NCBI GenBank assembly: GCA_963422265.1
Contig: OY729416.1
Span: 1,344,001 to 1,408,000 of the forward strand
Direction of reading: 5' to 3'
Origin: Thermodesulfobacteriota bacterium
GTDB lineage: Bacteria; Desulfobacterota_D; UBA1144; Nemesobacterales; UBA2774
DNA length: 64,000 bases
Shown: positions 50,172 to 63,733 of the stretch, in pieces
How positions within the stretch are numbered: the first letter of the stretch is position 1
Layout of the letters: each line of letters starts with the position of its first letter
Made by a program: the position numbers and the translations under genes
Notes under the pieces: generated by a model
Databases searched by the model: none
What the model saw: the letters and a program-made list of their open reading frames with translations, nothing else
Told to the model about the DNA's origin: nothing

Positions 50172-50697
50172 TGCGCTTGTATGCTCCGCTCGAGATATTA
50201 TAGGGAGTAACGGTAAATTGAGCAAACAGGCTAATTTGAGTATGGTCAATCTTCTCCCTACCGCAACGAAGCGAGACTGCCTGCCCTGCTATTACGCTTC
50301 ACTCTGAGCCTGCTTTGGAATTCCTCTTTTGTCATTCCAAATAGAGAGACGTTCCCAGGTCTCGGGCTAAAATCCACTGAGGATTTTTTCTTCTACTCGG
50401 TTGGAGAACCTGTCGAATCAGGGAGAGGGATGCAAGTTCGGATTGGAATGAGGGCGGCGCCCTAAGGCATCGGCGTGAGCCCAGCCGAACGCTTGTCGAA
50501 GGGTATCTATAAGCTATCTCTCCTAGCCATTCCTACCTAGCCTTCGCTGCTTACAACTTTGGGGGTATGCTTATTAAGCAGGCAACTGGCGACCCACTTC
50601 TTTTGCTTCCCTCTTTGATAAAGGGGGATATAGAGAGTTCAAATAGAGTTAGCTCTATAGCAAGTATCTGAGCTTTATGATAATTTATCTAGCGCTA

Positions 50698-51474
50698 ATG
50701 AGAATGAAGATTGAGTTTAGTTCAGACGACGAAGTCCGCCTTCCAATACATCATAACCATATAATACAGGGCGTTATTTACAGCTCTATTTCTTCCAAGC
50801 TGGCTAAAATGCTTCATGACAAAGGGTTTGAGTTTAATAATAGGAGGTTCAAACTTTTTACCTTTTCCAGAATCGAGGTGAATTTCAGAGTAGATAGAAA
50901 GGAAAATACTATAGTTTTTGGCTCTCCGTTCAGGCTTGTTATAAGCTCTGCCCTTAACCGGTTCATCGAAGAACTAGGAAACGAAATGCTCCGAAAAGAG
51001 CGTCTTAATATCGGAAAAAACACGGTAAGGGTCAACTCAATTGAGATCTCCAATTCTGTGCTATCGGACAAGAACAGGATAAAAATCCTCTCTCCCATAA
51101 CCATATACAGCACTCTTAAGAAAGCGGATGGGAAAAAGAAGACCTATTACTACTCGCCTTTTGAGGAAGAATTCTCTCACCTTGTCTCGGAGAATGCGAA
51201 GAAAAAGTTCAAAGCGTTTCATCAGGTGCATCCCCGAAAGCTGTTACCCAAGAACGTGAGTAAAAGCATTGAAGTAAAGAGAGCAATAAGCCTATCTCCG
51301 GTAGGCGTAAGACCCAACAATCAAAAGATAGTCAATTACAAAGGAACGATTATCAAAGGATGGATGGGAATTTATGAACTGAGCGGAGACCCCGAGCTTA
51401 TGAAGATGGTCTATGACGCCGGTCTCGGTGGCAAAAACTCACAGGGTTTTGGATGTTTTGAGGTTTTGGGGTGA
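50698..51474 (+). CDS. cas6: CRISPR-associated endoribonuclease Cas6
   Basis: FKLFTFS and C-terminal G-loop GLGGKNSQGFG. Confidence 0.95.
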   Translation: MRMKIEFSSDDEVRLPIHHNHIIQGVIYSSISSKLAKMLHDKGFEFNNRRFKLFTFSRIEVNFRVDRKENTIVFGSPFRLVISSALNRFIEELGNEMLRKERLNIGKNTVRVNSIEISNSVLSDKNRIKILSPITIYSTLKKADGKKKTYYYSPFEEEFSHLVSENAKKKFKAFHQVHPRKLLPKNVSKSIEVKRAISLSPVGVRPNNQKIVNYKGTIIKGWMGIYELSGDPELMKMVYDAGLGGKNSQGFGCFEVLG

Positions 51475-51509
51475 TAGGATTGACTATGCGGGAATGAGTA
51501 TTAGTTTTT

Positions 51510-51590
51510 ATCCAAGGGATACCTACGAGGGATTGAAACTTTGGATTGTTATAAGATTGTTCAGCATATCTACCTATAAGGAATGAATGG
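51510..51590 (+). ncRNA. CRISPR mini-array (degenerate repeat, 21-nt spacer, degenerate repeat); crRNA-like regulator of CreA/CreR type
   Basis: 51520-51539 TACCTACGAGGGATTGAAAC matches the array repeat 3' end at 18/20; 51570-51581 CTACCTATAAGG matches the repeat core; the spacer matches 51633-51649. Confidence 0.8.
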
Positions 51591-51601
51591 TCTTGACAGT
51601 T

Positions 51602-51649
51602 TTGATATGATGTTCATCTTAATTTTATGCTATTTGGATTGTTGTAAGA
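51602..51649 (+). promoter_or_regulatory. Putative sigma70 promoter with the mini-array target site
   Basis: TTGATA (51602) - 18 nt - TATGCT (51626), followed by the spacer-matching TTTGGATTGTTGTAAGA. A second TTGACA lies at 51593. Confidence 0.6.
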
Positions 51650-51684
51650 AACCTACCAAACACTAAATTGTTTAGGAGTAAACA

Positions 51685-51750
51685 ATGAAACACATAAGCG
51701 TAAAAATCGAAGAGCAAAGAGAAAAAGTTGTCACTAAGAAATCAATATAG
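51685..51750 (+). CDS. Mini-ORF MKHISVKIEEQREKVVTKKSI
   Basis: AGGAG RBS 6 nt upstream; first ORF after the targeted promoter. Confidence 0.4.
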   Translation: MKHISVKIEEQREKVVTKKSI

Positions 51751-51953
51751 ATACTCTTGCGTGCAAAATGACAGCGAAACATACGTTGATCCGACAACTC
51801 ATTGCTCTCGCAACCAACGCAGTTGTTTGCATCCCATAGGTTTACAGGGGAAGAGAAGAGGAGATGATTCAAGCAATGACAAAACCCAACAAGATGTTGA
51901 GAATAGGCTGAATGGGTGTGGATAAAATATCAGAGAAGGTTATTGTGTAAGAG

Positions 51954-53315
51954 ATGAACATGTTAGAAGAGATTATATATCAAAAATCAATGGGAAATCC
52001 ATTCATTGACGCTGGTGTGAGTGTAATGAGTCAATGGTTGGATATAAAGCCGCATGAAATTACTTCTGATGATTTAAGAAGGGTTGTAAAAGGAATTGTC
52101 CCTGTGTTTAACAATACGAGTTTTAAGAAAAGTTTATATTCTATATTTCCCAACAGTACTTTTACTAATAACTCTATAAGAGGTGATAGAAAAGCGAAAT
52201 TCATTTGTGATTGCAATAAATATATTGATGCCATTATAGTAATGCAGGACTCGGGCGATTGCCTTGGGTGTGGTAGGCGTAACTCAACCTACAAATTAGG
52301 AAAAGATAAAGTTCCTTTAACAGGAAGTGGAAAACTTGCAAATTTCTTTCCGAGTTTTGACAAGGGTGTGGGATATTGCTCAGCTTGTACTCTTGCAATC
52401 CAGTTTTCACCCTTATCATTTGTTGCCAGCGGTGGAAAATTGTTAATGCTTAGTTCTACTTCATGGCAAGCAATGGTTTCATGGACAAAAATATGCGTTA
52501 AAGACATACGAAGCAAGATGTTAAAAGGTGAAGACGTAACTTGTTATAACCCTGGATACTCTAATCCACGTAATGGCTTATTTTACATGGCAGGTGAAAT
52601 GATTAAGCTCGAGGAAGGCGGGGTAACAAATGAAGATGTGTCTATGCAGGTGTTTTATTTTACAAACTACAATCAAGGTCCGGAATTAGAAATTTTTTAT
52701 CTTCCTACACCGGCATTTAGATTTCTCCGCTATGCTAACCAAATTCAATATAAATCTGCGTGGATTAGCATTGTCAAAAGTGGCTATCAGAAAGTAAACT
52801 GGAACAAAGTAAAATTAGAAGATGATTACAAAAATAAGTATAACCTTGTTTATGAATATCTTTTACAAGAAAGGTCAATTATACAGTTCTTTCTAAATCA
52901 GAAGGAAAGAAAACAAAGAGGTGATTGGGAATTACTCTCTCTTTACTTAAAGGAGGTTAGAAATATGAGTGAAGAAAGGATTGAAGTGATTAGAAAAGTA
53001 GCTGATAAAATCGCAGATATTATAGAGAAATCTAGAAGTGATAAAAGACTAGGTCAGTTGGAAAGAGCAGGAAGCTACAGGGAGTTCCAAAACATACTTA
53101 GGTTTATTATAAAAGACAGATTAAAAAATGATGAAGATGAATGTCTTTTTACGTTGGATGAATATACAAAACATTTATTTCCTGATGGTTCACGCACATG
53201 GAAAGAGACGCAGTATTTATTATTGTTCGGAATTTACGAGACTCTTCATGAATGGCTTAAAGATAAGGGAATAATAGAAGATGAAAATACAAACCAATCA
53301 ACGGAGGAAAACTAG
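51954..53315 (+). CDS. cas8b1: Type I-B large subunit Cas8b1/Cst1
   Basis: GNPFIDAG, CxxC...CxxC zinc motifs, FTNYNQGP, position before cas7. Confidence 0.85.
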   Translation: MNMLEEIIYQKSMGNPFIDAGVSVMSQWLDIKPHEITSDDLRRVVKGIVPVFNNTSFKKSLYSIFPNSTFTNNSIRGDRKAKFICDCNKYIDAIIVMQDSGDCLGCGRRNSTYKLGKDKVPLTGSGKLANFFPSFDKGVGYCSACTLAIQFSPLSFVASGGKLLMLSSTSWQAMVSWTKICVKDIRSKMLKGEDVTCYNPGYSNPRNGLFYMAGEMIKLEEGGVTNEDVSMQVFYFTNYNQGPELEIFYLPTPAFRFLRYANQIQYKSAWISIVKSGYQKVNWNKVKLEDDYKNKYNLVYEYLLQERSIIQFFLNQKERKQRGDWELLSLYLKEVRNMSEERIEVIRKVADKIADIIEKSRSDKRLGQLERAGSYREFQNILRFIIKDRLKNDEDECLFTLDEYTKHLFPDGSRTWKETQYLLLFGIYETLHEWLKDKGIIEDENTNQSTEEN

Positions 53316-53317
53316 TT

Positions 53318-54343
53318 ATGTCTAAACATATTATTGGACTTGTACTTATAGACGCACCGTTTTCGGCTCTTAATAACGCAGGGACAGAAGCCTCTCAATC
53401 AACTGAAAACATAGTTGCTGTAAAAACATTAAGAAAGGGGCGGAATGTGTATCCCTATGTATCAGGACAGGCTTGGAGAAATTGGTGGAGGATTACTCTT
53501 GAGAAAGAACTTGTATGGAATCTTTCTCCCATTACACGGGGAACGAAAACAGCTTTTACTGCTGCAGATCCGGTGGAATATCCTGATGACGATCTTTTTG
53601 GTTATATGCGTGCGCAGTCAGAAGAGGTTCACCAAGAAGGCAAGAAGCCTAAAAAACAAAACATTACAGTTACTCGTTTATCTCCTCTCAAATGTTCTCC
53701 TCTTATCTCAATTGAGTCTCAACAGCCAACTAACGACTTTGGAGTTATGGCACGACAAGAGGACAATCCTGTTCCTTATGAACATCAATTTTATTCAACT
53801 GTCTTAAAAGGAATTTTTTCACTTGATTTAAGCGCCGTCGGCACATTTTGGAACGTTAATAAAACGGGTTACAAAAATGTCTCTGAACAATATGCCGAAA
53901 AGATCAGAGAAAACGGTGGAATACAGTCTGATGATAAAACTCATTGGATTCTGCCAAAAGATATACGGCTAAAAAGAAGCAAAGACGTAATTAAGGCTTT
54001 GTCTGTAATAAGCGGTGGGGCGAATTTAACCTCTCATCTAACGGATGTTACACCTAAGTTAATAATTCTTGGAGTAAATGAGGGTGGAAATCATCCATTT
54101 ATGCATCTGGTGGTAGAGAAACAAGGGAAAGGTGAATTTAGCATTCCAGCATTTAAGCAGGTTTTAGAAGATTATAAGGATAGGCTGGATTCTATCTACG
54201 TAGGGAGGAGAGAAGGTTTTATGGATGAGCTAGATGACTCTCTAACTAATCTCGCCAAATATAATGAACGAGTGATCTACAGTTCGCCTAATAATGTTAT
54301 TAGTGAACTGACCGAAAGCCTTGGACAATACTTAGATGGGTAG
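53318..54343 (+). CDS. cas7: Cas7/Cst2/DevR backbone subunit
   Basis: YPYVSGQAWR, DDDLFGYMRA, TRLSPLK. Confidence 0.92.
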   Translation: MSKHIIGLVLIDAPFSALNNAGTEASQSTENIVAVKTLRKGRNVYPYVSGQAWRNWWRITLEKELVWNLSPITRGTKTAFTAADPVEYPDDDLFGYMRAQSEEVHQEGKKPKKQNITVTRLSPLKCSPLISIESQQPTNDFGVMARQEDNPVPYEHQFYSTVLKGIFSLDLSAVGTFWNVNKTGYKNVSEQYAEKIRENGGIQSDDKTHWILPKDIRLKRSKDVIKALSVISGGANLTSHLTDVTPKLIILGVNEGGNHPFMHLVVEKQGKGEFSIPAFKQVLEDYKDRLDSIYVGRREGFMDELDDSLTNLAKYNERVIYSSPNNVISELTESLGQYLDG

Positions 54344-54362
54344 GTAAGAAGGCAAGTAACCA

Positions 54363-54989
54363 ATGGAAGTCCTAAGGATTCACATAACGGGTTGGGTTGC
54401 TTCATTTCGCAACCCTTTATTTGTAAGTGGGTATCAGCCTACTTTATCTGTTCCACCAGTTTCGACCGTTTACGGTTTAATCTCGGCAGCTTACGGAGAC
54501 TACATAACTCCTGGCCGAGCAAACATAGGGTATGTTTTTCACAGTGAAGGTAGAGCAGTTGATTTGGAAACCATATATGAATTTGGGGGAGGTTTAGATG
54601 CAAAGCCCAACATCATAAAACGTGAATTTCTCTTATCACCGCATCTATATATCTATACCCCAGATATATGGTTGAAAGAAGTATTTGAGGAACCTCATTA
54701 TCCTTTACTATTGGGTCGTTCCACAGAACTTGCAACAGTTGAATCAATAGAAAAGATCGTATTAAAAAAAGTAACCGAAACAAATTATTGTGGCACCCTG
54801 ATACCATTTCCAAATGACCAAATATCTGGGACTTTGCATGCTCTTCCAACTCACTTTACTCAAGACCAACCTCGTCGTCCCCAGGGTATTCGTGCTTTTC
54901 TTGCTGTTACAAAAAGAAATGGTTACGTAGGGGATGCATGGGAAGATAATGATAAGGGGTGGGGTGTTTATTTTTATGGGAAAGGATAG
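54363..54989 (+). CDS. cas5: Cas5b
   Basis: ASFRNP...PPVSTVYGLISAA and LLGR. Confidence 0.92.
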   Translation: MEVLRIHITGWVASFRNPLFVSGYQPTLSVPPVSTVYGLISAAYGDYITPGRANIGYVFHSEGRAVDLETIYEFGGGLDAKPNIIKREFLLSPHLYIYTPDIWLKEVFEEPHYPLLLGRSTELATVESIEKIVLKKVTETNYCGTLIPFPNDQISGTLHALPTHFTQDQPRRPQGIRAFLAVTKRNGYVGDAWEDNDKGWGVYFYGKG

Positions 54990-57231
54990 CTCCGAACCTA
55001 TTCTTGCTAAAAGTGAACCTAAAGAAAGTTTATTAGATCATACCAAGAACTGCATTGAAGTCTATTTGAGCATTAGAGATAGAATGCCGTTCTTGGGAGA
55101 CACATCTGGAAATTCTGATTTCTTTGAACATTTGTATTATGCAGTTGCTTTGCATGATCTAGGAAAAGCCGCAGAAGGTTTTCAGGATCAGCTTAAACCT
55201 AACGGTAGAAGATGGAATTATAGACATGAAATACTATCAGCTGGATTCACAGTTGGAGTGCAGTTGCCAGATATAGCTAAACAGGCAATTGGGCTGTCAG
55301 TCCTTACACACCATAAAGATATTAAAACTCTTAGGAGTAATTATCCATGCTTTCCAGAAAGGAACCCAGGCTTTGCAACTTATCAGAAAAAAGTGAAAGA
55401 AATGAAAGCAAATTGGGAACAAATAATTCAAATTCAAAACTACATAATAAAGATGTGTCCTGAGAACGAATGCCGATTTGAGCCTGTTGAAGATACTGGT
55501 GAAGTAATAAATGCTTACGAAAGTTATCTCTTGCCCTATTATAAGAATATTGAAAACGGGGACTCTACCGACTTACGGAACAACTATGGAATGCTTATGC
55601 GTGGGTGTTTAATTGCATGCGATCATCTGGCTTCGGATAGTTCGGGAGAAAATAAAATAATCTGTGCTTTAGAAAATTTAGATGGAGCTTTAAAAAGTAA
55701 TATTAGGGATAGGAACATAAAATGGAATAGCGTGCAAAAATCCTCTATGGATACTCATGGCAATTTAATGCTTTCTGCTCCTACGGGGTCGGGGAAAACA
55801 GAAGCATCTATGTTATGGAGTAGCATTAATCAGAATAAGACAAATGGTAAGAGAGTATTTTACGTATTGCCTTATACCGCTAGCATAAATGCAATGTATA
55901 AGAGATTGAAAGGAGTATTAACAGGTGAGAGAGTGTGTATGTTGCACGGCAAAGCATCTTACTTTCATTATAGATCTCTTGCTAATTGGGAAGATGATTA
56001 TTTCACAAGGCAAACTACTGTCAAAAAAATACAGAGCTTATCTCGAAAGATATACAGACCATACAAGGTATTAACACCATTCCAATTACTTAAATCTTTT
56101 TTTGGCATCAAGGGTTTTGAAATGCAGTTTGCTGAGATGTCAAATGGATTGTTCATCTTTGATGAAATTCACGCTTACGATGAGCATACCACCGCATTGA
56201 TAATAAAGATGATTGAGAAATTATATAAAGACTACAATGCAAAAATTTGTGTTATGACTGCCACTATGCCTAAATTTCTCAAAGATAAGATTGAAGATGT
56301 TTTTTGTAGAGCGGACTATAATGACGTGGCAATGCCATCAGATGAGAGGAATAAATCATATACGCGTCATAAGGTTAAGATGTTGGGTGATAATATGCTT
56401 GGAGTAATCCCACATATAAAAGAGGAATTAGAGCGCGGCAGAAAAGTAATGGTTGTGTGCAATACGGTAAAGAAGTCACAAGAAGTTTATAAAGAGTTAC
56501 AAGATGACAAGACCAAGTCCGTGCTTATACACAGCAGATTTATTCTGAAGGACAGAGAACGAATAGAGGCCAATTTGAAAGATGTTGATTTAATTGTGGG
56601 GACTCAAGCCGTTGAAGTTTCGCTTGATATTGACTTTGATGTTTTATTTACAGAGCCGGCGCCGTTGGATTCTCTAATTCAAAGGTTTGGCAGGATCAAT
56701 CGTAAGAACAAAAAAGGTATTTGTAATGTATTTATTTGTAAAATAGGGGGTAAAAGTGATAGATATATCTATTCACAGAAAATTGTTGATAAGACAGTTG
56801 AGGTGCTTGTAAATATTGATATTTTATATGAGTCTGAAATACAAGGCTTGATAGACACCGTATATGGTCAAGGGTATACAGAGGTTCAGGAAGAGAAATA
56901 TAATTATATAAGAGATACTTTTGAAACACATTTAAACTCTTTAAATCCATTCATTGAAAATCCCGAAAGTGAGCAAGAGTTTGAAGGATTATTTAAGAGT
57001 GTTGAAGTTGTTCCTGAGCAATTTCAGAATGAGTATTTAGAATGCGTTGATCAGAAAAAATATTATGAATCTATGTCTTATATAACTCAAATATCTCAAC
57101 GACGATTCCAGAGATTAAAGAAGGAAAAGTTGATCAATATTATTGATGGAAACTGTATTGTTAATGTTGGATATGATGAAAAACTCGGATTATTGGTTGA
57201 AAAGGAAAATCATCCGTATAAGGAATTCTAA
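54976..57231 (+). CDS. cas3: Cas3 HD nuclease-helicase
   Basis: HDLGK, APTGSGKTE, DEIH, QRFGRINR. Confidence 0.96.
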   Translation: MGKDSSEPILAKSEPKESLLDHTKNCIEVYLSIRDRMPFLGDTSGNSDFFEHLYYAVALHDLGKAAEGFQDQLKPNGRRWNYRHEILSAGFTVGVQLPDIAKQAIGLSVLTHHKDIKTLRSNYPCFPERNPGFATYQKKVKEMKANWEQIIQIQNYIIKMCPENECRFEPVEDTGEVINAYESYLLPYYKNIENGDSTDLRNNYGMLMRGCLIACDHLASDSSGENKIICALENLDGALKSNIRDRNIKWNSVQKSSMDTHGNLMLSAPTGSGKTEASMLWSSINQNKTNGKRVFYVLPYTASINAMYKRLKGVLTGERVCMLHGKASYFHYRSLANWEDDYFTRQTTVKKIQSLSRKIYRPYKVLTPFQLLKSFFGIKGFEMQFAEMSNGLFIFDEIHAYDEHTTALIIKMIEKLYKDYNAKICVMTATMPKFLKDKIEDVFCRADYNDVAMPSDERNKSYTRHKVKMLGDNMLGVIPHIKEELERGRKVMVVCNTVKKSQEVYKELQDDKTKSVLIHSRFILKDRERIEANLKDVDLIVGTQAVEVSLDIDFDVLFTEPAPLDSLIQRFGRINRKNKKGICNVFICKIGGKSDRYIYSQKIVDKTVEVLVNIDILYESEIQGLIDTVYGQGYTEVQEEKYNYIRDTFETHLNSLNPFIENPESEQEFEGLFKSVEVVPEQFQNEYLECVDQKKYYESMSYITQISQRRFQRLKKEKLINIIDGNCIVNVGYDEKLGLLVEKENHPYKEF

Positions 57232-57732
57232 GTGAATGAGGTAGCAATTACTGGAAATATAGTCCAATACTATTTCATTTGTAAGAGGAAAATATGGCTT
57301 AGTTCAAGACAAATATCGCCTGACCAAGATAATGCCCACTTAGAATTAGGCAGATTCATAAGCGAAACCACGTATAAAAGAAATAAAAAAGAGATTAGAT
57401 TAGAAAACATTATCGTTGACCTTTCAAAACTTGATAGTGAAAAGGTGGTTGTCGGAGAAGTAAAAAAAAGCTCCAAAGCTTCGGAAGCAGCTAGGATGCA
57501 GCTTGCGTTTTATCTTTACACCCTAAGAGAATATGGGATAGATGCTGAAGGCGAGCTTCTTTTTCCAAAGGAGAAGAAAAAGGAAAAGGTGCTTTTAGAT
57601 GAAGGGCTTACACAGAAACTTGAAAATGCAATTGAGGAGATAAAAACCATCGCAGCAGGAGATGTGCCACCGCCTGCGGTTAAAATCAGATATTGCACGA
57701 ACTGCGCCTACAGGGAGTTTTGCTGGAGCTAG
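57232..57732 (+). CDS. cas4: Cas4
   Basis: CKRKIW, D...EVKK, CxxCAYREFC. Confidence 0.95.
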   Translation: MNEVAITGNIVQYYFICKRKIWLSSRQISPDQDNAHLELGRFISETTYKRNKKEIRLENIIVDLSKLDSEKVVVGEVKKSSKASEAARMQLAFYLYTLREYGIDAEGELLFPKEKKKEKVLLDEGLTQKLENAIEEIKTIAAGDVPPPAVKIRYCTNCAYREFCWS

Positions 57733-57769
57733 TTTGGACTTTAGTGGAATAATCGTTCAACAACTTTAT

Positions 57770-57960
57770 CTTTACTCACTCCTCTCTTACTATATGCAAT
57801 CGTACTAAAGAAGGAGCGGACTCATCGGAATCATAATGATACTTTAGAGCATCTTTTATATTACTTCTTAGCTTCTTCAAGAGTGTCACCTTCGGTAAAT
57901 ATAGAATAACCAAGTGCTCTTGCCGTATATCCACCTTCTGGATCATCTTCTACCATAAAC
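57770..57960 (-). pseudogene. HicB-like antitoxin remnant
   Basis: Minus strand reads MVEDDPEGGYTARALGYSIFTEGDTLEEAKK, then after a frameshift NIKDALKYHYD...VRLHIVREE. Confidence 0.65.
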
Positions 57961-58017
57961 TACCTTACAATTCCGGTGCTTTTGCAAAGTTGATATCTAT
58001 ACGCCATATTATAGTTT

Positions 58018-58400
58018 ATGAGAAGAACCCAGCTTTATTTGAAAGAAGAGCAGTGCGATTATCTGTTAAAAGAGTCCCTTAATAAATGGAAAAACATTGC
58101 GGGGATTATAAGAGAATTGATAGACGTTAGTATCTCTTCAGAACGGAATAAATTGGGGCGCAGATCTTTCTGGAACGTCTGCGAAGACGGCTTTTTAACC
58201 GGGATCAAAAACGGATCAGTTTCTCATGACAAGTTTATATATATAAATCTAAATTGGATATTGATGAATAGCAAGAGAGTTTTTATTGATACAAGTGCGT
58301 TTATTGCATTAACCCGATCGCACAAATTTTTCAATTTACAATAGATTAAGAATAAGAGAAGTTTTCGCATTTGATGTGCATTTTACCAGTTTGGCAAGTT
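58018..58400 (+). pseudogene. VapBC-like remnant: RHH/CopG antitoxin fused to an internally deleted PIN toxin
   Basis: MRRTQLYL (RHH) reads into MNSKRVFIDTSAFIAL (PIN start, 58264); a PIN-like tail EVFAFDVHF follows within ~100 bp. Confidence 0.6.
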
Positions 58401-58437
58401 AAAAATCATTGATAATTATACTAAGAATAGCTAGCAG

Positions 58438-59439
58438 ATGGCTAATAGAATATTTATTTTCAGCAACGGGGAACTAAAGAGAAAGCAGAACACACTTTTC
58501 TTTGAGAATGGGGATGGCGAGAAAAAGTATATTCCCGTTGAAACTACTCAGGAGTTGATGGTGTTCGGGGAGGTAAGTCTTAATAAAAAGTTTCTGGATT
58601 TCGCTTCACAGAACCAGATGATCCTTCACTTCTTTAACTATTACGGCTATTACTCAGGAAGCTACTATCCGAGGGAACACCTAAACTCGGGACACATGAT
58701 CCTAAGGCAGGCGGAAGCTTACCTTGGTACGGATAGAAGAATAGGGATTGCGCGAAAGATTGTTCAAGGTGCAGTCCGGAATATTCTTAAAGTTATTGAT
58801 TACTACGTAAGAAGAAAAGAGGATGAACAAGTTAGAGAAGTAAGGTTTCAAATAGATGACCTTTATGCAAAAATTGCTGATCAGGATTCGACAGACACGC
58901 TGATGGCTATTGAGGGAAATATAAGAGACAGATACTACTCTGCCTTTGACAAGATTGTTGAAAACGACACTTTTAAATTTGAAAGTAGGACGAGACGCCC
59001 TCCCAAAAATAGGATGAATGCTTTAATCAGTTTTGGAAATTCACTCCTTTATACAACCGTGCTTAGCGAAATTTATAAAACTCACCTTGATCCTCGTATC
59101 GGTTTTCTTCACACGACCAATTTCAGAAGGTTTAGTTTGAACCTTGACATAGCAGAGATATTTAAGCCCGTGCTCGTTGATAGAATGCTGTTTTCCTTGA
59201 TAAACAAAGGCGAGCTGAAGGCTAAACATTTTGAGAAGAGGATGGGAGGAGTGGTTATGAATGAGAGTGGAATGAAGATTTTTTCAAAGGAATTTGAAGA
59301 GAGGCTTCAAAGAACCGTGAAACACAGAAAGATTGGCAAGCCCGTATCAAACAGAAGGCTCATGAGGCTTGAGCTTTATAAGCTGGAAAAGCACCTGATC
59401 GGCGAAGAAGAATATAAGCCCTTTGTATGGGAGTGGTAA
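58438..59439 (+). CDS. cas1: Cas1 (type I-B)
   Basis: RRPPKNRMNALISFGN, GFLH, DIAEIFKP. Confidence 0.97.
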   Translation: MANRIFIFSNGELKRKQNTLFFENGDGEKKYIPVETTQELMVFGEVSLNKKFLDFASQNQMILHFFNYYGYYSGSYYPREHLNSGHMILRQAEAYLGTDRRIGIARKIVQGAVRNILKVIDYYVRRKEDEQVREVRFQIDDLYAKIADQDSTDTLMAIEGNIRDRYYSAFDKIVENDTFKFESRTRRPPKNRMNALISFGNSLLYTTVLSEIYKTHLDPRIGFLHTTNFRRFSLNLDIAEIFKPVLVDRMLFSLINKGELKAKHFEKRMGGVVMNESGMKIFSKEFEERLQRTVKHRKIGKPVSNRRLMRLELYKLEKHLIGEEEYKPFVWEW

Positions 59440-59443
59440 AGCA

Positions 59444-59707
59444 ATGTTCGTGATACTTGTTTATGATGTGGGGCAGAAGAGGGTCGCCAAAGTTTTAAGG
59501 ACTAGCAGAAAGTATCTTAACTGGGTTCAAAACTCGGTTTTGGAAGGAGAGCTTACAAAAGCGCAATACGAAACCTTAAAGTTCGAATTAAATGGTATAA
59601 TAAAAGAGAAGTATGATTCTCTTATCTTTTATACTTTTAGAACGAGGAAGTATTCTCTAAGGGAGTTAATTGGGGTTCAAAAAGGTGGAGAAGAGGTATT
59701 TATCTAA
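59444..59707 (+). CDS. cas2: Cas2
   Basis: MFVILVYDV...WVQNSVLEG. Confidence 0.96.
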   Translation: MFVILVYDVGQKRVAKVLRTSRKYLNWVQNSVLEGELTKAQYETLKFELNGIIKEKYDSLIFYTFRTRKYSLRELIGVQKGGEEVFI

Positions 59708-59896: not shown

Positions 59897-62800
59897 CTTT
59901 TTTGACTACCTATAAGGGATTGAAACAGCGTAAACTTAGATCACTTTTCAAAGCCATTTTCAACTTTTTTGACTACCTATAAGGGATTGAAACCTGTGCA
60001 TCTGTAATTTACCTCCATTTTACAACCTCCTTTCTTTTTTGACTACCTATAAGGGATTGAAACATCACTAAAATTTGGCATCTCGCCTCCTTATGGCGGC
60101 TTTTTTGACTACCTATAAGGGATTGAAACTCCCCTTCCCGGATCGCCTCGCCGTAGCCGTCCCCGACTTTTTTGACTACCTATAAGGGATTGAAACTTGT
60201 CGATCTTCAGGGGAGCGTAGCAGTTCGTTCTCCCTTTTTTGACTACCTATAAGGGATTGAAACTTGCCATTGCGGTACGCTCCCCCATAGCCGTCCCCTC
60301 TTTTTTGACTACCTATAAGGGATTGAAACTCGAAAATATCCCCCGCTCCTAAATTACGGGTACCTTCTTTTTTGACTACCTATAAGGGATTGAAACCTGC
60401 CTTCACGGCGCGCACTACAGGCGCCGCCGCCAACTTTTTTGACTACCTATAAGGGATTGAAACTAGAGATTTTGCTCGGGTCGAAAGAATCGGGGGTTGC
60501 TTTTTTGACTACCTATAAGGGATTGAAACGTAATTCGCATAATACAACCTCCTAGTAATTTGATTGCTTTTTTGACTACCTATAAGGGATTGAAACTGAT
60601 GGTGGCAGCGTCGAAAGAAGAAATTGAAAGTGACTTTTTTGACTACCTATAAGGGATTGAAACGCATAAGGAGGTAGGACATGAAAGATATCAGAGGATA
60701 TCTTTTTTGACTACCTATAAGGGATTGAAACACTCTCCCGTATGTCCAGGCCACGAGAGCGAGCCGTCCTTTTTTGACTACCTATAAGGGATTGAAACTT
60801 GCCATTGCGGTACGCTCCCCCATAGCCGTCCCCTGCTTTTTTGACTACCTATAAGGGATTGAAACTTGTCCTGTGCCTCGTCCAACAGAGAGTAAACCCA
60901 GTCCTTTTTTGACTACCTATAAGGGATTGAAACCTCGTAATCTCGCTCTGCCTTTTCTAGAGCATCGCCCCTTTTTTGACTACCTATAAGGGATTGAAAC
61001 AGTTGAAATGAATTCTAAATGTTCGAATCCAGTCATTCTTTTTTGACTACCTATAAGGGATTGAAACTAGAGGTGGACTACCTCTACGATGAAATTGAAG
61101 AAGACTTTTTTGACTACCTATAAGGGATTGAAACGTTGTCGTTCGCCTCGTCCAACAGGGCGTAAACCCAGCTTTTTTGACTACCTATAAGGGATTGAAA
61201 CTGATTGGACTTAACCCTACACACTTCTCGGGTCACCTTTTTTGACTACCTATAAGGGATTGAAACTGAAGATCGACAATGGCTGTGGGAAGAGGCAATC
61301 GCCTTTTTTGACTACCTATAAGGGATTGAAACTAAAAATAATGATTAAGCCAATCTTCACAATCGCCAACTTTTTTGACTACCTATAAGGGATTGAAACA
61401 GACAATTCCCTCGTACCTATCTCTGCGGAGTAGTTTACTTTTTTGACTACCTATAAGGGATTGAAACAATAGTATAAAGTATACTATCTACATATCAAAC
61501 AAGACTTCTTTGACTACCTATAAGGGATTGAAACCCGTTTTTGCTTCGTTTTTCTCACAGGGGCGTTCATGGCTTCTTTGACTACCTATAAGGGATTGAA
61601 ACTCCCCGATGTGCCACGCGTGCCCGTCGCCGTCCCCCTCCTTCTTTGACTACCTATAAGGGATTGAAACACATTGAATCAGCATAAGAAGGATTAGCCT
61701 TGTCCACTTCTTTGACTACCTATAAGGGATTGAAACTCTCAAGTCTCTTGTTACGACTGGTCGTGTTCGGAAGCTTCTTTGACTACCTATAAGGGATTGA
61801 AACAACAATAGAATAGTTAATAAAATGATTATAATCATAACTTCTTTGACTACCTATAAGGGATTGAAACTGCGATACGAGTTTCCTTTGCCTTCGCCAT
61901 CATGGCCTTCTTTGACTACCTATAAGGGATTGAAACTCAAGAACAATTTTTTTATTTCTGATCCCATCAGGGACTTCTTTGACTACCTATAAGGGATTGA
62001 AACCGATTCTACCCTCAGAATCGCGATAGGTTTGATGCGGCTTCTTTGACTACCTATAAGGGATTGAAACTGTTCTTTCCTCCTTATGCGGGCGGTTTAT
62101 ACGCCCCTTCTTTGACTACCTATAAGGGATTGAAACTATTTCTAATGGGTACGGGATCCTCGGGGAGGCAAGCTTCTTTGACTACCTATAAGGGATTGAA
62201 ACTGCCTTCTTCTGCTGCAGGTAGCCCTGTAGTTTGGCCCTTCTTTGACTACCTATAAGGGATTGAAACCCTTGTGCCAAAACGCAGTTTTCATATTGTG
62301 TCCGTCTTCTTTGACTACCTATAAGGGATTGAAACATCGGCACTTTGAGAGAAGAAGATCGACAAGCGTTAGCTTCTTTGACTACCTATAAGGGATTGAA
62401 ACTAGAAAAGGATTGTGCTCGTATAGATAAACTACTTCCTTCTTTGACTACCTATAAGGGATTGAAACTGGGAACGGACTTTGTGAAAAGAGCTCAAGGC
62501 GGGACTTCTTTGACTACCTATAAGGGATTGAAACCGTCGTCGATCAACTCGTTCAACAGCGCGTAAACCGCCTTCTTTGACTACCTATAAGGGATTGAAA
62601 CGCGCCCATATGACCTATACCGGTCTGAAGTCCACGAGCTTCTTTGACTACCTATAAGGGATTGAAACTGATTCTTCAGATCCCAGTAAAATTTCTACAG
62701 GTTGGCTTCTTTGACTACCTATAAGGGATTGAAACCCCGTAACGGCGGCGGGGCGTAATTGGTAATTTTACTTCTTTGACTACCTATAAGGGATTGAAAC

Positions 62801-63733
62801 GCATAGGAGGAAAGAAATAGGAGGTAATAAAATGTATCTTCTTTGACTACCTATAAGGGATTGAAACCATTGTGCCAAAACGCAGTTTTCCAATTCTGCC
62901 CGTCCCTTCTTTGACTACCTATAAGGGATTGAAACCCCGTAACGGCGGCGGGGCGTAATTGGTAATTTTACTTCTTTGACTACCTATAAGGGATTGAAAC
63001 CTCTACAAAATAGTACGATTTGAAGAAGGTTCCACATTCTTCTTTGACTACCTATAAGGGATTGAAACTTGCAAGGAAAGCTCAAACGGGTGTCTGGATT
63101 AGGGCTTCTTTGACTACCTATAAGGGATTGAAACGTCGTGTTCGTGATAGAATCCAGAAAGTAGAGCAATCCTTCTTTGACTACCTATAAGGGATTGAAA
63201 CACGTAGAAACTGGCAGCCAGCCATATGAAACCGCCGCCTTCTTTGACTACCTATAAGGGATTGAAACTGCGATACGAGTTTCCTTTTCCTTTGCCATCG
63301 TGGCACTTCTTTGACTACCTATAAGGGATTGAAACTGGAAATGTTATCTTAAGATGCCTGGAGTGGTTCATTCTTCTTTGACTACCTATAAGGGATTGAA
63401 ACTCCGAAAAACAGGTATCCACACATTTTCCATCTTCTCCTTCTTTGACTACCTATAAGGGATTGAAACTGAGCAAAGTCATAGACGAAGCAGGCGACAA
63501 GTCAACTTCTTTGACTACCTATAAGGGATTGAAACTGGAAATGTTATCTCAAAATGCCTGGCGTTGTTCATCTTCTTTGACTACCTATAAGGGATTGAAA
63601 CGCGCGAACTCCCGGAACATCTGTCTGACTTTGTCGCTTCTTTGACTACCTATAAGGGATTGAAACGCAGGATCGAGTAGCCTTAGAATCATATGTTGCG
63701 ATTCTTCTTTGACTACCTATAAGGGATTGAAAC
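59897..63733 (+). CRISPR. Type I-B CRISPR array, 58 repeats of 30 bp and 57 spacers of about 35-40 bp
   Basis: Repeat CTT(T/C)TTTGACTACCTATAAGGGATTGAAAC, counted by hand; ATTGAAAC 3' end; probable extra spacer and degenerate repeat out to ~63790. Confidence 0.98.

Follow-up and report, generated by a model that had tools for sequence, protein, structure and literature searches.

We analyzed a 64,000-nt stretch of the genome of a Thermodesulfobacteriota bacterium (assembly GCA_963422265.1, contig OY729416.1, positions 1,344,001 to 1,408,000), referred to below as the window, and focused on a small element lying between cas6 and cas8b1/cst1 of a type I-B CRISPR locus. The element starts 36 nt past cas6 and consists of a degenerate repeat, a guide and a second degenerate repeat. 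We consider it probable that it is a two-repeat mini-CRISPR encoding a CreR-type, CRISPR RNA (crRNA)-like RNA, which would park Cascade on the cas8 promoter without cleavage. This reading is carried by the anatomy of the element, by a non-random match of its guide to a site near cas8, and by guides and targets that co-vary across three loci. The original prediction, which had been made from the letters of the window, proposed a CreR/CreA-like mini-CRISPR guiding Cascade to the cas8 promoter, and the comparison of three loci lends support to such a putative role. The kind of circuit is already known; as both CreR/CreA and regulatory mini-arrays have been described for type I-B, the window adds a clean new example to it.

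The first degenerate repeat (psiR1, 51510..51539, + strand) is identical to the repeat of the main array at 20 of 30 positions, and agreement rises to 18/20 over the last 20 positions. Its 8-nt 5′ handle, ATTGAAAC, is fully intact (8/8), and the arms of the CCT...AGG hairpin are retained, with two changes confined to the loop. Rfam assigned psiR1 only to CRISPR-DR2 and below threshold (24.6 bits vs. a gathering score of 37). The guide itself (psiS, 51540..51560, +) is 21 nt long. It is followed by the second degenerate repeat (psiR2, 51561..51590, +), with 16/30 identity to the array repeat. In psiR2, repeat positions 10–21 are all preserved (12/12) and only 3 of the last 8 positions, which form the 5′-handle part, agree; the 3′-handle and hairpin part was kept and the 5′-handle part was lost. 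Outside the array, the core of the repeat recurs exactly in the window only once, as the psiR2 core.

Guide bases 1–17 match a protospacer-like target at 51633..51649 (+) with 16/17 identity. The only mismatch falls at position 12, and guide bases 18–21 are unmatched. The similarity sets in precisely with the base that follows the handle, and the sequences flanking the two copies are unrelated. None of 5000 shuffled guides reached the observed anchored score in the cas6-cas8 spacer under plain scoring, and 2 of 20000 reached the match when every sixth base was ignored. Every other site in the 64-kb window has at least three mismatches to the 17-mer; matches at ≤3 mismatches number four, vs. 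0.44 expected. On its 5′ side the target is flanked by CTA (51630..51632, +), a putative protospacer-adjacent motif (PAM) of the YYD class. A promoter-like sequence, TTGATA-18-TATGCT (51602..51631, +), was listed by a consensus scan with a score of 9/12 and is a prediction only. The target starts 1 nt after TATGCT, and this −10 box overlaps the target flank.

Much of this had been outlined in the original prediction and held on recomputing: the coordinates of two pseudo-repeats around a 21-nt spacer (51510–51590), the 8/8 handle and the stem; the match of spacer positions 1–17 with its single mismatch and CTA flank, which no shuffle out of 5000 equaled; and the promoter-like sequence abutting the target, which the scan lists as well. 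A second promoter-like sequence had been described before the mini-array, TTGACT-16-TAGTTT (51480..51507, +). The sequence is indeed present, yet it is weaker than implied, as it scores 8/12 by our count, with a −10 box of 3/6, and is absent from the listing of the consensus scan.

Strain variants of the element were also encountered. Contigs from run X5 track the window as far as guide base 11, beyond which they diverge, and a 384-nt contig from run X6 tracks it up to guide base 15 (window 51540–51554) before it diverges. Variants from both runs are without 4 bases at 51510, and the second repeat of the X6 variant is better preserved than that of the window, being nearer to the array repeat. 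In the contigs of runs X7 and X8 nothing was found. The X5 and X6 variants, in which no target can be seen, may hint that only the 5′ part of the guide is under selection.

A search for Cas6 in 120 genomes of the same phylum gave ten genomes with a match. Three of these carry a mini-array, five were examined and are without one, and two were left out (G047, in which the sequence ends 33 nt after cas6, and G038, with a partial match only). Apart from the genome of the window (G000), the carriers are G024 and G027, relatives from the same family and another genus. G024 was also the sole relative returned by a Cas8 search (65% identity). In both relatives the mini-array occupies the same cas6-cas8 position and runs antisense to both the cas genes and the main array (L021 14231–14324 and L022 8263–8359, respectively). 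Their psiR1, psiR2 and a hairpin following psiR2, which scored as terminator-like in G027, are alike, and the conservation pattern of the window, with the 5′ handle kept in psiR1 and the 3′-handle and hairpin part in psiR2, is found in both. The guides, 25 nt in G024 and 23 nt in G027, differ from each other and from that of the window. From guide base 1 onward, each matches a cas-sense-strand site located at a distance of about 90 nt. Cas8 belongs to the Cst1 family in the window and G024 and to the TM1802/Csh1 family in G027, so the design is common to two Cas8b families, and the similarity between the G024 and G027 loci stops at the guide.

In G027, 20 of 22 positions agree, with mismatches at 6 and 9 and a TCA flank, and the target is the sole site at ≤3 mismatches in the 3.0-Mb genome. 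No shuffled guide reached this match, either among 5000 under plain scoring or among 20000 with every sixth base ignored. The first base of the target coincides with the final base of the −10 box in TTGACT-17-TATCAT (10/12), 54 nt before cas8. For G024, the guide agrees with its target at 14 of 17 positions, with mismatches at 6, 9, and 12 and a CCA flank; 4 of 20000 shuffles did as well with every sixth base ignored. None of the three guide-target pairs has a mismatch at positions 1–5, 7, or 8, and four of the six mismatches over the three pairs fall at positions 6 or 12 (binomial ~0.009 vs. an expected 1 in 6, by our own arithmetic). The apparent seed and the every-sixth pattern of mismatches fit type I pairing rules. 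Positions 1–5, 7, and 8 are those of the seed that biochemical work has defined for the I-B system of T. maritima, and type I effectors are described as tolerant of sixth-position mismatches, an established rule (Shmakov et al., bioRxiv 10.1101/2023.03.03.530964).

Guide and target thus co-vary in 3/3 mini-array loci, different guides each matching their own cas8-proximal site. Co-variation of spacer and target in related loci had been put forward with the original prediction as a way to check it, and was seen in every mini-array locus. The same comparison bears on whether the element could be a functionless relic, that is a decayed array fragment, with the 17-nt pair being a local duplication or the sites of a protein regulator. 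Degenerate repeats are described as common in cas loci, many of them with no detectable target in the survey of Shmakov et al., and the mini-array is missing from most related loci, which would suit a relic. However, neither decay nor a protein operator would readily account for similarity that sets in directly behind the handle in 3/3 loci and ends within the guide, for mismatches that favor every-sixth positions, or for PAM-fitting flanks found at the target copy only. Likewise, G024 and G027 share psiR1, psiR2 and the downstream hairpin, yet their guides differ in step with their targets. The copies are direct in the window and inverted in G024 and G027, and the target keeps its orientation towards cas8 throughout, as would be expected of an RNA guide but not of a symmetric pair of operators. 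We therefore regard a relic or operator as very unlikely.

The flanks of the targets, CTA in the window, CCA in G024, and TCA in G027, all fit YYD, and next to the guides themselves stands AAC or AAT (AAC in the window). YYD is the PAM consensus reported for the I-B system of T. maritima, in which A is most favored at −1 and AAC, the repeat-adjacent sequence, is among the least favored motifs. All I-B systems profiled so far are described as favoring a pyrimidine at −2, and that of C. thermocellum accepts TTN and TNA. The I-B system of Parageobacillus thermoglucosidasius is reported to accept CTA and TCA, at levels far below TTA (PMC10551041). Use of CTA as the PAM of the window system is plausible but unproven. 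The original prediction had raised the worry that CTA may fail as a PAM; this is weakened, though not removed, by the fit to the YYD of T. maritima and by the weak CTA activity in P. thermoglucosidasius. The array spacers had been taken in the original prediction to suggest CCN, and protospacers of the 57 array spacers were searched for as well. Only background matches of 13–19 nt were obtained in the window's own genome, the whole array gave no match against 50,697 phage records, and two spacer patterns gave none against IMG/VR.

Several observations weigh against Cascade-guided repression of cas8 and are considered together here. The promoters are known only as matches to a consensus, of which the scan gave 8 in 2 kb vs. 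4.1 in shuffles, which makes TTGATA-18-TATGCT weak evidence by itself. The target starts 321 nt before cas8, and three other promoter-like sites lie in between (51728–51755, 51841–51868, and 51876–51904), so cas8 could use a promoter that is not covered by the guide. The mini-array's own promoter appears poor; read-through from cas6 is an alternative source of its transcript. In P. thermoglucosidasius, interference with CTA is reported to be about two orders of magnitude weaker than with TTA (PMC10551041). As to the related loci, under plain scoring 235 of 5000 shuffles reach the G024 match, which is therefore weak, and its significance depends on ignoring every sixth base in keeping with the sixth-base rule. 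Finally, carriers of the mini-array amount to three loci only. No repeat-like unit was found after cas6 in the five further Cas6-bearing genomes of the phylum, searched with a repeat-like pattern, nor within 900 nt after cas6, on both strands, at 11 Cas6 loci of a species-genome collection, 8 of which had at least 2.6 kb of downstream DNA. In five metagenome relatives of Cas8, the cas6-cas8 gap is at most ~60 nt, leaving no room for a mini-array. Its absence from most related loci indicates that the mini-array is dispensable for this kind of system. On the supporting side, the N-terminus of the window Cas8 aligns with those of relatives having cas8 10–60 nt behind cas6, and the tight spacing of cas8 in relatives without a mini-array suggests that mini-array, promoter and leader together are a regulatory module inserted into a cas6-cas8 operon that is otherwise uninterrupted.

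The cas6-cas8 gap was also seen to hold other contents in two genomes of a sister family. In one (L002 3858–4301, = L042) it contains a 68-aa open reading frame (ORF) and a split ORF, whose N-terminus looks by eye like a PIN-domain toxin; this content could be decayed toxin-antitoxin cargo at the mini-array position. In the other (L001 3770–3960, = L043) a GGGAATGACA-like motif recurs in several inverted copies within a gap of ~270 nt, which shows no CRISPR-repeat likeness.

For the self-repression of cas8 that we favor, transcription, processing, binding and repression are inferred from the sequences, as follows. The mini-array would be transcribed with cas6 or from its own weak promoter. The cas6 product, an endoribonuclease expected to cleave this transcript, would cut in psiR1 and psiR2 and thereby release a ~51-nt RNA with an 8-nt AUUGAAAC handle, the 21-nt guide and a 22-nt 3′ handle. 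Once loaded with this RNA, Cascade (Cas8b1/Cst1, Cas7, and Cas5) would recognize the CTA flank, and guide bases 1–17 would pair with 51633–51649. We propose that the mismatch at position 12 costs little, as this would be a flipped-out base, and that the R-loop is too short to license Cas3, the guide being only 21 nt long and pairing over 17. Guide complementarity of ≤26 nt in P. thermoglucosidasius or ≤24 nt in Haloarcula hispanica is reported to give repression without Cas3 cleavage by I-B systems (PMC10551041), and the guides of 21–25 nt in the three loci are at or below this cleavage-to-repression switch length. Bound Cascade would act as a roadblock on or just past the −10 box of a promoter reading towards cas8-cas7-cas5-cas3-cas4, with cas8b1/cst1 as the first gene of the presumed repressed unit. 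The expected outcome is negative feedback on the effector genes, easing when ordinary crRNAs titrate Cascade or when Cascade is inactivated. The cas6 gene, located upstream of and outside the targeted promoter, would escape repression, as the upstream cas6 of H. hispanica is reported to do (Liu et al., bioRxiv 10.1101/2023.03.10.532045).

CreR RNAs from degenerate mini-CRISPRs have been described for types I-B, I-E, and V-A (Liu et al.). According to that account they share with the window element the psiR1-psiS-psiR2 order within a cas locus, a psiR1 that keeps the 5′ handle and a psiR2 that keeps part of the 3′ handle. Common to both are also a psiS whose 5′ part is partly complementary to a PAM-flanked site (with a putative PAM in our case) at the effector promoter, and predicted autorepression. 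An obvious toxin is lacking in both. The window element differs in belonging to a Cas8b1/Cst1 system of an uncultured bacterium, in having its target 321 nt before cas8 with a leader in between, and in being inverted in two relatives. Regulatory mini-arrays are reported for about 19% of bacterial I-B loci (Shmakov et al.). The features given for them, i.e., spacers of 20–60 bp, a partial match of at least 10 bp to a cas promoter, a canonical PAM flank (putative here) and tolerance of sixth-position mismatches, are those of the window as well. In contrast, the I-B targets described in that survey lie at the cas6 promoter, and the window target lies after cas6 and before cas8. The I-B Cascade of P. 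thermoglucosidasius offers a further parallel, as short guides (≤26 nt) are reported to repress without Cas3 cleavage and CTA and TCA are usable PAMs; there, however, the guides were engineered and the best PAM was TTA (PMC10551041).

A different comparison is that with the CreTA modules of H. hispanica and Halobacterium hubeiense, both of type I-B. As described for these, the cas6-cas8 position and a partly complementary guide are the same as in the window, the target is likewise flanked by promoters, and an ORF led by a Shine-Dalgarno sequence lies past the repressed promoter (PMC8501985; Liu et al.). In the window, a leader of ~300 nt (51650..51953, +) extends from the target to cas8 and contains a 21-codon ORF in addition to the three promoter-like sites. 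The ORF (51685–51750) is preceded by AGGAG, then 6 nt, and its ATG at 51685 lies ~35 nt past the target end. The guide could then also, or mainly, be a CreA antitoxin that restrains a toxin, a small RNA or a peptide, that the leader encodes and the repressed promoter would transcribe first; losing Cascade would then set the toxin free, an addiction module compatible with repression of cas8. Besides the position shared with the creTA of H. hispanica, the leaders speak for this, being long in the window (321 nt from target start to cas8) and G024 (214 nt) vs. the 10–60 nt between cas6 and cas8 in relatives lacking the mini-array. Both also have a strong Shine-Dalgarno sequence and a short ORF (21 codons in the window, 14 in G024) ~35–50 nt past the target. 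In G024, TTGACA-16-TAATTT, seen by eye nearer to cas8 and not in the scan listing, could give cas8 a promoter of its own.

The details of the leader argue otherwise. Known CreT toxins are described as having two consecutive rare codons (AGA or AUA) after an efficient start, and a stem-loop (Cheng et al., NAR 2021, PMC8501985). The window ORF has no tandem rare codons, all of its 21 codons being common as judged from 253 long ORFs of the genome, in which Ile is encoded by ATA in 43% of cases and Arg by AGA in 32%. The short ORFs of the window and G024 are unrelated in sequence, and that of G024 starts with TTG. Taken as a whole, the leader gave no better fold than shuffled sequences did (z = −0.57); an imperfect 9-pair hairpin was noticed by eye ~65 nt past the ORF stop codon. 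Longer leader ORFs of 65 and 66 aa had no PADLOC match, the former also no Pfam match, and a search of the leader against Rfam gave nothing credible. The leader shows no colinear similarity to the cas6-cas8 spacers of G024 or G027. Moreover, the host is bacterial and not haloarchaeal, and in G027 the 54 nt from target start to cas8 leave no room for a toxin, which indicates that the common design works without one. We thus consider a CreTA-type addiction module unlikely, and autorepression by a CreR-type RNA remains the reading we prefer.

A genome-wide search with the window guide gave a second match outside the window, at G000:C1:721419-721436 (with its flank G000:C1:721416-721436, L014 1498–1518). 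Guide bases 1–18 agree there at 17 of 18 positions, with a mismatch at 15 and a TCA flank. The gene that contains the site (G000:C1:721171-721641) codes for 156 aa with a cNMP-binding domain; dprA lies upstream of it, sufE is its convergent neighbor, and crRNA pairing would be with the non-template strand. If the CreR-type reading holds, Cascade should bind this site about as well as the cis site. The guide might in that case be a trans-acting regulator too, sending Cascade to a chromosomal gene and tying its expression to free Cascade, which is compatible with repression of cas8. Any such genomic match was obtained for only 163 of 20000 shuffled 18-mers. A PAM-plus-seed search with the different guide of G024 returned one match besides the cis target, at G024:C2:294347-294364 (L050 1488–1517; TTA flank, 14/15). 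It overlaps the −10 box of TTGAAT-17-TACAAT, the sole promoter-like site before a two-domain rhodanese gene that is followed by sufE, and the secondary sites of the two genomes fall in the same syntenic block, rhodanese-sufE-cNMP gene.

On the other hand, chance alone should by our own arithmetic give the G024 match (14/15, two positions being ignored) ~0.8 times per genome, and the common neighborhood was noticed after the fact. G027 is without such a site, both genome-wide and in its syntenic block. The 11-mer seed of the window guide occurs in 7 copies in the genome vs. 1.4 expected; this enrichment was set aside because the extra copies are without YYD flanks and extended pairing, and the absence of such flanks itself speaks against trans targets. 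Taken together, we find a trans-acting role quite unlikely, and hold it doubtful to the same degree that the guides of two genera converged on a selected second target outside the CRISPR locus, in the rhodanese-sufE/cNMP block. If both secondary sites were real, guides that evolved convergently would couple free Cascade to a gene cluster for sulfur trafficking and cyclic-nucleotide sensing, and a type I system would have a host-gene regulon beyond self-regulation.

A phage-borne mimic of the guide was considered and rejected. The handle plus seed (19 nt) occurs in 14 IMG/VR contigs (L060–L073); 13 share it exactly, inside copies of one conserved, coding-looking stretch, and the 14th is unrelated to these. 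No repeat-like hairpin precedes any of the matches, and we therefore judged them to be due to chance.

The locus around the element is of type I-B, complete, and belongs to the Cas8b1/Cst1 variant, as assigned by Pfam and NCBIfam above curated cut-offs; its cas genes and array are on the + strand. It opens with cas6 at 50677..51474 (Pfam Cas_Cas6_C, 2.8e-39; NCBIfam TIGR01877, 5.4e-41), which is separated by an intergenic spacer of 479 nt from cas8b1/cst1 at 51954..53315 (Pfam Cas_CXXC_CXXC; NCBIfam TIGR01908, 5.9e-45). The genes cas7/cst2, cas5t, cas3, and cas4 (53318..57732; Pfam/NCBIfam) are close-packed after cas8, and cas1 and cas2 (Pfam) follow at 58438..59707. The CRISPR array, on the same strand as the mini-array, comprises 58 repeats of 30 nt (59897..63733), from which the repeat consensus was taken, and 57 spacers of 35–40 nt.

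Some further features of the locus were recorded. The ~700-nt gap between cas4 and cas1 (57733–58437) encloses a 108-aa ORF (58018–58344), for which no Pfam or NCBIfam match was found and PADLOC gave only a weak match to a type IV Cas11 model (E = 0.021). In the array, duplicate or near-duplicate spacers occur at 60244/60779, 62706–62800/62906–63000, and 63305/63505; among these, one repeat-spacer-repeat unit was copied exactly and one spacer pair is 94% alike. Position 4 of the repeat is C instead of T in the leader-distal repeats of the array.

Of local interest are the inversion of the element in relatives, its occurrence with two Cas8b families and the long leader that follows it; only this 300-nt leader and the second chromosomal match could hold something new. 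For users of I-B tools, the natural guide may serve as a ready design for repression without cleavage. The element would add a natural case, comparatively well supported, in which a short guide lets Cascade repress its own genes, here in a type I-B system with Cas8b1/Cst1 from an uncultured lineage. The three loci amount to a natural experiment on a small scale, in which the repeats were kept and the guides swapped, in either orientation and with two Cas8b families. Together they indicate what such a circuit needs, namely a seed, a flank of the form YYA, a guide no longer than 25 nt, and a target located on the cas8 promoter.

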